A DNA stretch of 64,000 nucleotides from a virus. Lineage: Duplodnaviria > Heunggongvirae > Uroviricota > Caudoviricetes. A program made the position numbers and the translations under genes. Positions 3 to 10,015 of the stretch are shown piece after piece (the stretch's first letter is position 1; every line of letters starts with the position of its first letter). Below the pieces are notes generated by a model that saw only the letters and a list, made by a program, of their open reading frames with translations, was not told the DNA's origin and made no database searches. Where the stretch lies: the IMG/VR virus record IMGVR_UViG_3300045988_010208. One strand, written 5' to 3'.

Positions 3-5797
<5,795 letters not shown>

Positions 5798-5799
5798 TA

Positions 5800-6966
5800 A
5801 TGGCAGTAGGTGAAATTCAAATTAGTGCCTTGCCTCAAGCAGCCTTACCAATTGACCTTAGTGATATCTTCCATCTTAAGCAGGGTATTGAGGATAAGAG
5901 ATGCACTCTTGAGCAATTACTTGCTCCACACTCAAGCCTAAGAAATAACCCTCACGGTGTTACTAAAACACAAATTGGTTTAGATAACGTTATCAATGCT
6001 CTTCAGTTAGTTGCTGCAAATAACTTATCAGATGTTACTAATGTCACTGAGGCAAGGGCAAATCTACAGATTATGTCTTCAGAAGAGGTTAATAGCCTTG
6101 TCCAACAGCATATTAATGATAAGAGTAATCCACACAATACAACTAAAGCACAGGTTGGTTTAAGTAATGTTCAGAACTGGACAACATCCAACCTTTATAA
6201 TGAAGATGCAGATAAGTACGCTACAGCAAGAGCAGTAAATAACTTGTACAAGGCTGTTCAGGCTTCTTATCCAGTAGGTACTATCCATCTCTCTATGAAT
6301 CCTGCAAACCCTTCTACATATTTAATTTGTGGAGGTACTTGGGAGTTAGTTTCAAGAGGAAGAGCACTTGTAGGTTATGATAGTGCTTCTAGGCCAGTTG
6401 GTAGTAACTTTGGCTCAAGTAGTATTAGTTTATCTAGTAACAACCTACCATCACATAGCCATTCAATCTATCTAACTGGTGGTGGGCATACTCATGGTGC
6501 TACTATTACTATTGATGGCTTTGATTACGGCAATAAGAGCACAAACAGTTTCGATTATGGAACAAAGACCACTAATAGCACTGGTGCTCACACCCACTCA
6601 GTGAGTGGTTCAACAAATACCACAGGTAATCACACACATACTGTAGGTGGTCGTTACGGAGGTGACTCTATTGGTGGTAAACAACGTGTTCAGGTCTCAG
6701 GGACTGCTCAGGTTTCCAGTGTAGCTGGTGACCACTCACACACTATTAGCGGTTCAACAAATACCACAGGCAATCACCAACACACTGTTGCAATTGGTGC
6801 TCACACGCATACTGTTGCAATTGGTGCTCATACCCATAAAGGCACAGTAACTTTGCAGTCATCTGAGCATACTCACTCAGGTACTACAGGCACTACAGGT
6901 GCTGGTCAAGCATTTAGCGTTGAACAACCATCCTTTGTGGTTTATGTATGGCAAAGAACCGCTTAA
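5800..6966 (+). CDS. tail fiber protein with His-rich HxH repeat tip domain
   Basis: 388 aa; C-terminal region carries repeated GAHTHSVSG / GNHTHTVGG / AIGAHTHTV motifs like the metal-coordinating HxH repeats of T4-type fiber tips; C-terminal ~140 aa paralogous to that of the next gene. Confidence 0.6.
   Translation: MAVGEIQISALPQAALPIDLSDIFHLKQGIEDKRCTLEQLLAPHSSLRNNPHGVTKTQIGLDNVINALQLVAANNLSDVTNVTEARANLQIMSSEEVNSLVQQHINDKSNPHNTTKAQVGLSNVQNWTTSNLYNEDADKYATARAVNNLYKAVQASYPVGTIHLSMNPANPSTYLICGGTWELVSRGRALVGYDSASRPVGSNFGSSSISLSSNNLPSHSHSIYLTGGGHTHGATITIDGFDYGNKSTNSFDYGTKTTNSTGAHTHSVSGSTNTTGNHTHTVGGRYGGDSIGGKQRVQVSGTAQVSSVAGDHSHTISGSTNTTGNHQHTVAIGAHTHTVAIGAHTHKGTVTLQSSEHTHSGTTGTTGAGQAFSVEQPSFVVYVWQRTA
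6550..6960 (+). repeat. paralogous tail-fiber tip segment (copy 1)
   Basis: DNA and protein similarity to 9010-9365, e.g. shared GGTGCTCACACCCACTCAGTGAGTGGTTC and GGTGGTCGTTA.GG.GGTGACTCTAT.GGTGGTAAACAACGTGTTCAGGT. Confidence 0.8.
6784..6837 (+). repeat. 27-bp tandem duplication inside fiber tip coding sequence
   Basis: ACTGTTGCAATTGGTGCTCACACGCAT followed immediately by ACTGTTGCAATTGGTGCTCATACCCAT (encodes TVAIGAHTH twice). Confidence 0.8.
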
Positions 6967-7017
6967 AAAATTCTTTTACAGGGGGCTGTATAGCCCTCTT
7001 TCTAGAGGACAAAAATA

Positions 7018-9369
7018 ATGGCAGATTACAAGTTGAGTGAATTAAACTCAATCGATACAATCCGTTCAGATGACCTTCTTCATGTCAGGGTTAAAAAGAG
7101 ACCTGAAATGCTGGGTGATGAAGACCGTCGAATGACCTATCAAGATTTCTTAGCATCTTTTAAGCTTGAAAGATTTGTTCAGATTGCTGGTAGCACTATG
7201 ACGGGTGACTTAGGGATTGTTAAGTTACTTTATGGTGGTAAGGCAGTCTTTGACCCTACAGGCTCTTCTGAGATTAATATTGGGGATGTTTTAAAGACTT
7301 TTAAAATTAACGCAAATGGTCTTAAACTAACTATTGCAGATGCTTCGAGGTCAGCAACTGTTTATCATACTCTGAATAAACCAAGTCCTAATGAACTTGG
7401 GATGAGAACTAATGAAGAGAATGATGCAAGATATGCAAAACTGGCTAACTCGAATACGTTTAAAGCCAAGCAAACTATTACATCGAATGGTGAGATTTTA
7501 ACGCTAGTCACCCCTGCGGAGGCGAGTTCAGCGTACTGTGCCCTTGTAGGTAGAGACGCGAGTAATGAAAAGAATTGGGCTATTGGGAACCTAATTAGAG
7601 GCAGCTTTGATGTTCAAATCAAGAGTAGACAAGGTTCCATCCTCACTCTAGGTACAACTGTAACGATTAATAAGACCCTTGCTGTTGTTGGTCAGGTCAA
7701 ACCTTCTGACTTCTCTAACTTAGATGCTAGATACTTTACTCAGACAGTTGCTAATCAGAGATTTGCACAGTTAGCTGGCAATAACACATTTAGTGGTTCT
7801 AATATTTTCACTAATAATTTTGTTATTAAGAAGAATGCTAATGCTATTACTATTCAAAATGTAGATACAACTACGGCTTTGTATATCCAAGCAAGAAAAT
7901 CAGATGGAGCTAATAAGTGGTACATTGGCAATGACGGTGATGAGAGTATTGTAAACATCTATAACTATTTAGCAAAAACACAAATCTCACTAGGCAACAC
8001 CATTACTATGAGCAAAACAGTCCAAATTGGTGGTCAAGTTCAACCTTCTGATTGGACTAACATTGACTCTAGATATATTCCGGCAGCAACATTAAGTACA
8101 ATTGCAAGAACTAATGCACAAAATACTTTTAATGGTGTACAGAAAGTTGTTACTGATGCTGAAGCCCTAATTGTGAAAAACTATACTCAGAACAGACCAT
8201 TGTATATCCGTGGTGTGGACACTGCTAATGTGTCAAGGTGGTGGGTAGGTGTTGGTGGGGCAGATACTAATGATGTAACACTAAATAACAGTTTTTCTGG
8301 CACTCAGTTAGTTTTAGGTAACTCATCTGCAAGTATCAATAAGACATTAACCCTAGCAGGGCAGATTCAACCCTCAGATTTCTCTAACTTAGATGCCAGA
8401 TACTTTACTCAATCAGCAGCTAATCAGGAATTTATGTATGCAGGTTCCACAGGTACTGGTAGTGAAGTAGGTGATAGTGATGGCATTGCTTGGAATGCTA
8501 AAACTGGTCTGTATAATGTTACAGGTTATGGTGGAGGCTCAACACAACTTGTTTTCCAAATGTATCAGGGTGCAAGCTCTACTCCCTCTGCTCAATTAAA
8601 ATTCAACTACAGGAATGGGGGTTTTTGGTATAGGTCATCAAGGGATGGTTTTGGTTTTGAAGAGGACTTCACACAAATTTATACAGAGAAGTATAAACCA
8701 ACTCCTTCAGCTATTGGTGCATACACTAAAGCAGAGACTGACCAGAAGATTGCAGAAGCGATTAGTGACTCTACAGACCTGAATAAAATCTATCCAGTAG
8801 GGATTGTGACATGGTTTAACAGTAATGTTAACCCTAATACAGCACTCCCTGGGTTAACTTGGACGTATCTGAACAATGGTGTTGGTAGAACTATTAGAAT
8901 TGCAGCAGCAAACGGTTCAGATGTTGCTACAACTGGTGGTTCAGATTCTGTAACGTTATCTGTTGGTAACTTACCTTCACACACTCATAGCTTCTCTGCG
9001 ACTACTTCATCATTTGACTATGGTACTAAAACCACTAACACTACTGGTGCTCACACCCACTCAGTGAGTGGTTCTACTAACAACACTGGTGCTCATACAC
9101 ATACAGTTGGTGGTCGTTATGGTGGTGACTCTATCGGTGGTAAACAACGTGTTCAGGTATCTGGTACAGAACAGGTATCTAGCTCTGCTGGTGCTCACGC
9201 TCACACTGTATCTGGTACTGCTGCCTCTAACGGAAACCATGCTCACACTGTTGGTATTGGTGCTCACAGTCATACAGTTAGTGGTAACACTGGTGGTACA
9301 GGTTCTGGTTCAGCATTTAGTGTAACTAACCAGTTCTATAAGCTGATGGCTTGGGTAAGAACTGCTTAA
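7018..9369 (+). CDS. long tail fiber protein (receptor-binding) with internal repeats and HxH tip domain
   Basis: 783 aa; three internal ~40-aa repeats (..GQVKPSDFSNLDARYFTQ..); C-terminus LPSHTHSFS..GAHTHSVSG..GNHAHTVGIGAHSHTVSG paralogous to 5800-6966. Confidence 0.65.
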   Translation: MADYKLSELNSIDTIRSDDLLHVRVKKRPEMLGDEDRRMTYQDFLASFKLERFVQIAGSTMTGDLGIVKLLYGGKAVFDPTGSSEINIGDVLKTFKINANGLKLTIADASRSATVYHTLNKPSPNELGMRTNEENDARYAKLANSNTFKAKQTITSNGEILTLVTPAEASSAYCALVGRDASNEKNWAIGNLIRGSFDVQIKSRQGSILTLGTTVTINKTLAVVGQVKPSDFSNLDARYFTQTVANQRFAQLAGNNTFSGSNIFTNNFVIKKNANAITIQNVDTTTALYIQARKSDGANKWYIGNDGDESIVNIYNYLAKTQISLGNTITMSKTVQIGGQVQPSDWTNIDSRYIPAATLSTIARTNAQNTFNGVQKVVTDAEALIVKNYTQNRPLYIRGVDTANVSRWWVGVGGADTNDVTLNNSFSGTQLVLGNSSASINKTLTLAGQIQPSDFSNLDARYFTQSAANQEFMYAGSTGTGSEVGDSDGIAWNAKTGLYNVTGYGGGSTQLVFQMYQGASSTPSAQLKFNYRNGGFWYRSSRDGFGFEEDFTQIYTEKYKPTPSAIGAYTKAETDQKIAEAISDSTDLNKIYPVGIVTWFNSNVNPNTALPGLTWTYLNNGVGRTIRIAAANGSDVATTGGSDSVTLSVGNLPSHTHSFSATTSSFDYGTKTTNTTGAHTHSVSGSTNNTGAHTHTVGGRYGGDSIGGKQRVQVSGTEQVSSSAGAHAHTVSGTAASNGNHAHTVGIGAHSHTVSGNTGGTGSGSAFSVTNQFYKLMAWVRTA
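9010..9365 (+). repeat. paralogous tail-fiber tip segment (copy 2)
   Basis: See 6550-6960; about 85% identical stretches at nucleotide level. Confidence 0.8.
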
Positions 9370-9448
9370 TCCCTTATTGACTGATTGTTAAGATGGTGTT
9401 AATATTCTTTATGGGTATTCTCACCATCTTGGCTGATGAGGTGATTAA

Positions 9449-9643
9449 ATGCCTACAATCCTAGCAATTCTTCTAAAAAATCTAGGTAGTTTCTTCTGGA
9501 AACTCATTTTATCCCTTCTAAGTGAATACATGATTGAGAAAGTGTTCTTTAAGCTTGCAAGATACCTTGCGAGTAAAACAGACACACCTATTGATGATGA
9601 GTTCGTAGATAACTTAGAAAAAGCTTTTAAGGGGGAGAAATAA
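9449..9643 (+). CDS. small hydrophobic protein
   Basis: 64-aa ORF with hydrophobic N-terminal half, directly after the tail fiber gene. Confidence 0.3.
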   Translation: MPTILAILLKNLGSFFWKLILSLLSEYMIEKVFFKLARYLASKTDTPIDDEFVDNLEKAFKGEK

Positions 9644-10015
9644 ATGAAGTGGCTAGAGGAAGCTTTTAAAAATAATATTGGTGCAATTGTAGTTGGTATT
9701 TTTAGTGTTATTGGGATGTATACCACCATGCAAGTTTCGGATGGTAAACAAGAAGTGTCTATCACAACAAAGTTACAGCAGTTAGATAATTATTCCAAAA
9801 GTAATTATTCAGCTATTCGTGATTTACAGTCTGATATGAGGCTGCTTCAGCTAGGGATGGAGAACCAGAAAGTCCAGTTAGAGAATGTTAAGGGTGAGAA
9901 CGCAAAACTTACTAAGACTCTTGATAAATTCTCTGATAGTGTGAACAATCTGGCTCAATCAGTATCAGCCCTCCAAGCTATTACTGAAAAGAACACAAAG
10001 AATACTGAAAAGTAA
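9644..10015 (+). CDS. membrane-anchored coiled-coil protein
   Basis: 123 aa; one N-terminal hydrophobic helix (IGAIVVGIFSVIGMY) then heptad-like Q/L/N-rich region; followed by an intrinsic terminator. Confidence 0.4.
   Translation: MKWLEEAFKNNIGAIVVGIFSVIGMYTTMQVSDGKQEVSITTKLQQLDNYSKSNYSAIRDLQSDMRLLQLGMENQKVQLENVKGENAKLTKTLDKFSDSVNNLAQSVSALQAITEKNTKNTEK

Follow-up and report, generated by a model that had tools for sequence, protein, structure and literature searches.

Tandem repeats that stay in frame raise the question of whether they serve to vary a protein or belong to its architecture. We addressed it for a 27-bp sequence that occurs twice in succession in a tail fibre gene, and for which the initial annotation had suggested a switch: slippage would change the length of the fibre tip and so affect adsorption. 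The DNA analysed (the window, 64,000 nucleotides) is, to judge from its sequence, that of a Felix O1-type Salmonella myovirus.

The ORF that carries the repeat, at 5800-6966, is 97–98% identical at the nucleotide level to its counterparts in VSe102, UAB_Phi87, Felix O1 and other Felix O1-type Salmonella phages. It matches the tail fiber family PHROG 2097 (E = 3.8e-138) and contains a Gp10_C collar (E = 8.9e-17) and a Phage_fiber repeat when searched with Pfam. Upstream lie ORFs for a Baseplate_J protein of 489 aa, a baseplate protein of 285 aa and a protein of 100 aa, and downstream a fibre of 783 aa in which the domains gp37_trimer and gp37_C are recognised. The module of phage Bas63 consists of wedge 2 (489 residues), wedge 1 (285 residues), the LTF platform, STF gp26 and LTF gp27 (PMC12609058). 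Since order and sizes match this module, the two fibre ORFs were assigned as short and long tail fibre genes, respectively:

5800..6966, + strand: short tail fibre gene, 388 aa; its Felix O1 orthologue is named 'putative tail fiber protein GP37', and gene order and neighbour lengths equate it with Bas63 STF gp26
7018..9369, + strand: paralogue of 783 aa forming the long tail fibre, whose gp37-like needle is shorter and has a single FDYGTK and a single TVGIGAHSH unit, the latter at 9247-9273

The intergenic sequence between the two fibre genes folds into a stem-loop (6972-7009; MFE −17.3 kcal/mol, z = −3.24), and no shuffled version folded as well. It passed unflagged by a consensus terminator scan, and may terminate transcription weakly or stabilise the transcript. 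A promoter and terminator scan of 5400-9700 gave nothing above shuffled expectation.

The repeat itself is as first described, with in-frame copies exactly at 6784-6810 (ACTGTTGCAATTGGTGCTCACACGCAT) and 6811-6837 (ACTGTTGCAATTGGTGCTCATACCCAT), each encoding TVAIGAHTH (residues 329-337 and 338-346). The copies match at 25 of 27 nt, have a perfect run of 20 nt in common, and were scored by Tandem Repeats Finder as period 27, 2.0 copies, 92% matches and no indels; no other 27-nt tandem with at least 25/27 identity was found in the whole window. A sequencing or assembly artefact was ruled out, the same two copies being found in dozens of independent genomes. The 25/27 DNA identity is less remarkable than it may appear, because the peptides are identical and codon usage is biased: with the peptides fixed as identical and codons drawn independently, from the usage of six ORFs at 2747-9369, at least 25/27 identity is expected with P = 0.048. 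The DNA identity of the copies only marginally exceeds what the protein repeat accounts for.

Homology of the repeat to the T4 gp37 needle

A phmmer search against PDB sequences aligned residues 146-359 of the short fibre to the T4 gp37 tip (2xgf_A, chain 18-227; E = 8.5e-26), and the PDB chains matched by the query were confined to 2XGF and gp10. In this alignment the TVAIGAHTH-TVAIGAHTH pair stands opposite SVGIGAHTH-TVAIGSHGH of T4. T4 has two units at these positions as well, which makes the doublet ancestral and the two-unit state ancient. The needle carries nine HxH motifs. Four precede the hypervariable residues 281-311 on the ascending side, with first histidines at positions 219, 230, 264 and 278, and five follow them on the descending side, at 312, 326, 335, 344 and 357. 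The parts of the needle are as follows:

6454..6876, + strand: needle domain (aa 219-359), homologous to the 2XGF needle and containing the nine HxH motifs
6520..6579, + strand: ascending units FDYGNKSTNS (6520-6549) and FDYGTKTTNS (6550-6579), predicted to lie opposite the TVAIGAHTH pair of the hairpin needle
6598..6639, + strand: ascending 14-aa module SVSGSTNTTGNHTH, paired with 6742-6783 and lying within a 64-nt direct repeat
6640..6732, + strand: head, putatively receptor-binding, aa 281-311, hypervariable among orthologues
6742..6783, + strand: descending 14-aa module TISGSTNTTGNHQH, directly upstream of the tandem units
6784..6810, + strand: descending-arm unit 1, TVAIGAHTH, aa 329-337, with HxH = H335/H337, aligned to T4 gp37 SVGIGAHTH (H989/H991)
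6811..6837, + strand: descending-arm unit 2, TVAIGAHTH, aa 338-346, with HxH = H344/H346, aligned to T4 gp37 TVAIGSHGH (H998/H1000)

The repeat had been placed inside the fiber tip, which needs a correction in that it lies outside the head: the units belong to the descending arm of the needle, and two intervening HxH motifs (312-314 and 326-328) separate them from the head. The columns of H344 and H346 are nearly invariant in an alignment of 55 sequences.

In T4, the needle (D11, residues 882-1009) is an insertion into the collar D10 and holds seven Fe ions, each coordinated by the HxH motifs of three chains; H929 and H931 of the head-proximal motif were essential when tested by substitution (PMC6957217). 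By homology, a metal ion on the fibre axis (Fe in T4) would be held at each HxH of the trimer in octahedral coordination by six histidines, two from each chain. The initial description of the units as metal-binding rungs agrees with their homology to the iron-coordinating rungs of T4 gp37, with metal binding itself a prediction from sequence.

The two tips have in common the collar and needle homology, HxH motifs in both arms, two VxIGxHxH and two xDxGTK units, and a head between the arms. They differ in the number of HxH motifs (seven in T4, nine here), in the GGGHTH ascending and EHTH descending modules, which are extra here, and in their heads; moreover, T4 gp37 is the distal half of the 1026-aa long fibre, whereas the protein studied here is a 388-aa, baseplate-attached short fibre. 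The cryo-EM work on gp26 and gp27 of the Felixounavirus Bas63 describes the same gene module at genus level, and in both STF and LTF a gp37-like collar, a six-stranded HxH needle and a head at which the chain doubles back (PMC12609058). The density of the Bas63 fibres was insufficient for side-chain modelling, and the Bas63 STF has seven di-histidine motifs, as opposed to nine in the short fibre here (PMC12609058). The Pfam family PF03335 (Phage_fiber, 14 aa) also matches HxH-containing units of both fibres of the window, with 41.8 bits for the long fibre and a marginal 20.9 bits (cutoff 20) for the short one, where the best stretch is aa 259-272 and not the TVAIGAHTH units. The repeating HxH rung is thus already known from T4, from Bas63 (PMC12609058) and from PF03335.

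An AF2 monomer of the 388-aa protein, built on the 55-sequence alignment, was poor (pLDDT 62.8, pTM 0.27) and uninformative on topology, and Foldseek with this model gave no match in the PDB at E ≤ 0.001, an outcome that is expected for an intertwined trimer.

Paired modules in the two arms

The idea that rung number changes is correct to the extent that descending units range from 0 to 4 among distant relatives, but they always change together with the ascending partner. The ascending unit consists of 10 residues (FDYGxKxTxx) and the descending unit of 9 (x-V-x-I-G-x-H-x-H). Of 131 homologues, 120 have as many ascending as descending units (Spearman rho = 0.92), and the ascending/descending classes are 0/0, 1/1, 2/2, 3/3 and 4/4; the long-fibre paralogue in the window is 1/1, T4 is 2/2 and TuIa gp37 is 3/3.

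TuIa gp37 (X55190.1) has three ascending xDxGTK and three descending VxIGxHxH units, compared to two and two in T4. It resembles the short fibre in its adjacent identical peptides (TVGIGAHTH twice, 23/27 nt) and differs in having one unit pair more than either T4 or the phage studied here. Unit pairs change together even between T-even relatives.

Arm lengths co-vary in the same manner. Measured between anchors that are invariant or nearly invariant (H219, H278, H312) and the last HxH, the ascending/descending arms of 2/2 proteins are 59/45 residues long, those of a 3/3 protein 55/40 and those of 4/4 proteins 65/49, and 58/47, 63/50 and 70/56 also occur among the homologues. The 59/45 lengths are common to orthologues down to ~60% identity. 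Adding 10 ascending and 9 descending residues per pair reproduces the lengths exactly, with the 3/3 and 4/4 proteins missing a 14 + 14 pair (SVSGSTNTTGNHTH with TISGSTNTTGNHQH), and the arms of the long-fibre paralogue (38/23) equal those of the short fibre minus one 10 + 9 and one 11 + 13 pair. The 360-aa tail fibre of Salmonella phage vB_SalM_SPJ41 (P0007) equals the short fibre minus the 14 + 14 HxH pair; with an N-terminus that is 100% identical, a length 28 aa shorter and a different head, it represents a natural case of paired-module loss.

The relative position of the arms was approached through contacts quoted for T4 (PMC6957217), not through coordinates. Three points (the 882/1009 boundaries, G921-F970 and H929-G964) give a register of i + j = 1891-1893, from which we infer that the arms are antiparallel in roughly 1:1 register, such that T4 D893-K897 would face A994-H998 and F902-K907 would face V984-H989. 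These register points, together with the co-variation, suggest that FDYGxK faces VxIGxHxH in the short fibre.

The chain would run from the collar up the needle to a small receptor-binding head and back to the collar, and because it goes up and returns, each descending VxIGxHxH unit would face one ascending FDYGxKxTxx unit. A hairpin needle inserted in the collar is indirectly in agreement with the arm-length co-variation and with the equal counts in 120/131 homologues. In such a hairpin both arms would have to change together, since a change of nine residues in a single arm would put the two collar halves out of register. Unit number would be fixed by the need for matching arm lengths, at two in the Felix O1-type lineage as in T4.

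In our view the two 27-bp copies are, with a probability of roughly 85%, consecutive nine-residue rungs in the descending arm of a T4-gp37-type needle, and form a fixed structural repeat, not a variable switch. This reading is based on the repeat, on the homology, on the co-variation of the arms and on the invariance among close relatives described below.

Variability of the head

The head is far more variable than the needle around it. Among orthologues its identity is 6–29%, with flanks up to 96–100%; in P0002, for example, the head is 23% identical, against 98% for the ascending and 96% for the descending arm. The short-fibre head recurs in the long-fibre paralogue (195 nt, 81%; 9013-9207) and in the E. 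coli prophage fibres P0075 and P0109, and the orthologue P0024 has a T4-like head, YIEAWNGTG.

It is conceivable, if somewhat doubtful, that the DNA of the HxH units also acts as a short homology patch (a 'His box') for swapping head cassettes between fibres or between phages, a role that would complement the structural one. The contrast between head (6–29%) and flanks (96–98%) in P0002, the heads held in common with the paralogue and the prophage fibres, the T4-like head of P0024, and a 39-nt stretch of the repeat that is 92% identical to T-even (TuIa) g37 DNA all fit such a role. The breakpoints in P0002-P0004, however, lie at H278-H280 and H312-H314, which flank the head, and not at the TVAIGAHTH units, and no recombination junction was mapped at 6784-6837. 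'His box' as a term found no match in the literature searched.

Both fibres of the phage have nearly the same head, GGRYGGDSIGGKQRVQVSGT, despite the hypervariability of this cassette. In addition, a 64-nt direct repeat (6581-6644 and 6725-6788; 80% identical, spaced 144 nt) brackets the head-coding segment, encoding GAHTHSVSGSTNTTGNHTHTV in the ascending arm and GDHSHTISGSTNTTGNHQHTV in the descending arm, with counterparts in the long-fibre paralogue at 9044-9107 and 9188-9251. Presumably this is the geometry to be expected for head duplications of the T4 gene 37 type.

Unit number in close relatives and near-identity of the copies

Comparison with related genomes had been put forward initially as a way to detect copy-number variation, and none of the close relatives compared had a change of ±27 bp. 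Among the GenBank relatives listed, 0 of 60 carried a ±27-bp indel in 6740-6880, these being consensus genomes in which variants below 1% in lysates are invisible. The region spans 141 bp in the GenBank matches listed, except for two unannotated GE_vB assemblies that are off by 1 and 3 bp. Full-gene matches listed are mostly 1167 bp long; a few unannotated GE_vB assemblies are 2–11 bp shorter, and none departs from this length by 27 bp. In a protein cluster at 90% identity (81 members), 13 of the 15 members listed have 388 aa and the others 429 aa and a partial 127 aa, with no protein of 379 or 397 aa among these 15.

A variable-gap pattern allowing for 1, 2 or 3 copies retrieved three exact-flank matches from IMG/VR, all with two copies, and had no match in metagenome contigs; the pattern is a weak probe, as it requires exact flanks. 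Synthetic one- and three-copy proteins in four natural backgrounds were absent from a set of 15 billion proteins, in a look-up that is likewise weak in demanding exact full-length identity. Nearly all Felix-like orthologues carry two units. Copy-number polymorphism among close isolates, the mark of a contingency locus, was not seen in the 60 listed GenBank relatives or the three IMG/VR matches.

The unannotated GenBank entries MG969404-MG969414 (Salmonella phages GE_vB_*), one of which is 109 kb long, show length differences of 1–11 bp in the short-fibre gene, none a multiple of 27, that look like assembly or sequencing errors and not real variants. The entry GU169904.1 (Staphylococcus phage SA1) contains at 83943-84083 a stretch of Felix O1-type tail fibre that matches all 141 nt of the query at 84% identity, and looks chimeric or contaminated.

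The near-identity of the copies is restricted in its distribution. Outside the Felix O1 group, adjacent units of orthologues are 14–22/27 identical and usually encode different peptides, and values of 24–25/27 occur in the Felix O1 sub-clade only. Four sites separate Felix-type copy 2 from that of the SP116 orthologue; at three of them the change turns copy 2 into copy 1 (ACG>ACT, GGG>GCA), and the copy-1 sequence is already present as copy 1 in more distant E. coli phages (L010). Taken with the P of ~ 0.05 obtained from codon bias, this pattern suggests that copy 1 converted a short tract of copy 2 within the Felix O1 sub-lineage, although the sites, some 4 nucleotides, are too few for proof. 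The near-identical DNA of the copies would come from strong peptide constraint and codon bias, probably aided by short intragenic gene conversion.

A more far-reaching proposal, which we regard as improbable, joins these elements. According to it, gp37-type needles would obey a strict paired-module grammar (10 + 9, 14 + 14, 11 + 13) with numbers changing in lockstep, the near-identical units of Felix O1 may record gene conversion that is ongoing, and slippage in one arm could now and then yield proteins that still assemble, with one rung looped out, as host-range variants of low frequency. If this were true, such variants would be the natural counterpart of the duplications in T4 gene 37.

In the switch proposed initially, rungs would be gained or lost at a useful frequency when the copies slip during replication or recombine unequally, and needle length and adsorption would change as a result. 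The 20-nt perfect run between the copies and the range of 0–4 units among distant relatives speak in its favour, as do the duplications in T4 gene 37 (Tetart et al. 1996, J Mol Biol 258:726), which, as cited in PMC7002106, expand the host range to Yersinia and are described as involving a small adhesin domain in selected mutants. These duplications are in frame, lie in a gp37-type tip and alter adsorption, and are a real precedent for the idea of a switch. They were, however, selected laboratory mutants of a small adhesin domain and not of single needle rungs, whereas the repeat studied here is a conserved wild-type rung, of which T4 also has two. The gene 37 segment duplicated in the work of Tetart et al. 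(1996) reportedly includes the receptor-binding head and has His boxes at its borders. The short fibre has a single head (aa 281-311), which lies outside the repeated segment (aa 329-346).

Further points weigh against slippage. There are only two copies (2.0), not an array of several near-identical units, and no ±27-bp variant was found among the 60 GenBank relatives listed, in IMG/VR, among the 15 listed of 81 cluster members or in the synthetic look-ups. Natural variants always alter the ascending partner as well, and the two ascending units are only 21/30 nt identical; one slip can therefore not change both arms. The 3/3 and 4/4 relatives are 46–61% identical in the ascending and descending arms, compared to 83–95% at the N-terminus. 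As their whole tip has diverged, their unit numbers came with cassette replacement and not with slippage. With an ancestral doublet, no 27-bp variants and a co-varying partner arm, a slippage-driven length switch is unsupported and appears very unlikely.

Very unlikely, too, is a recent, lineage-specific tandem duplication as an evolutionary novelty that lengthened the needle by one rung. It would account for copies that are 25/27 identical with identical peptides, but was rejected, since outgroups conserve the two-unit state: two diverged units stand at the aligned positions in T4 gp37 and in essentially every Felix-like orthologue. The 59/45 arms extend to orthologues of ~60% identity, and the ascending pair, at 21/30, is old; both the two-unit state and this pair predate the conversion pattern.

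Taken as a structural repeat of the gp37-like needle, the tandem duplication is in itself a finding of little weight, the correct sighting of a known metal-binding rung, and the lockstep grammar of its modules is a small additional observation. For the engineering of Felix O1-type and T4-type fibres it amounts to a design rule, namely that needle length should be altered by matched pairs of ascending and descending modules, and that specificity is to be swapped through the head, which lies between the two innermost HxH motifs, and not through the rungs.
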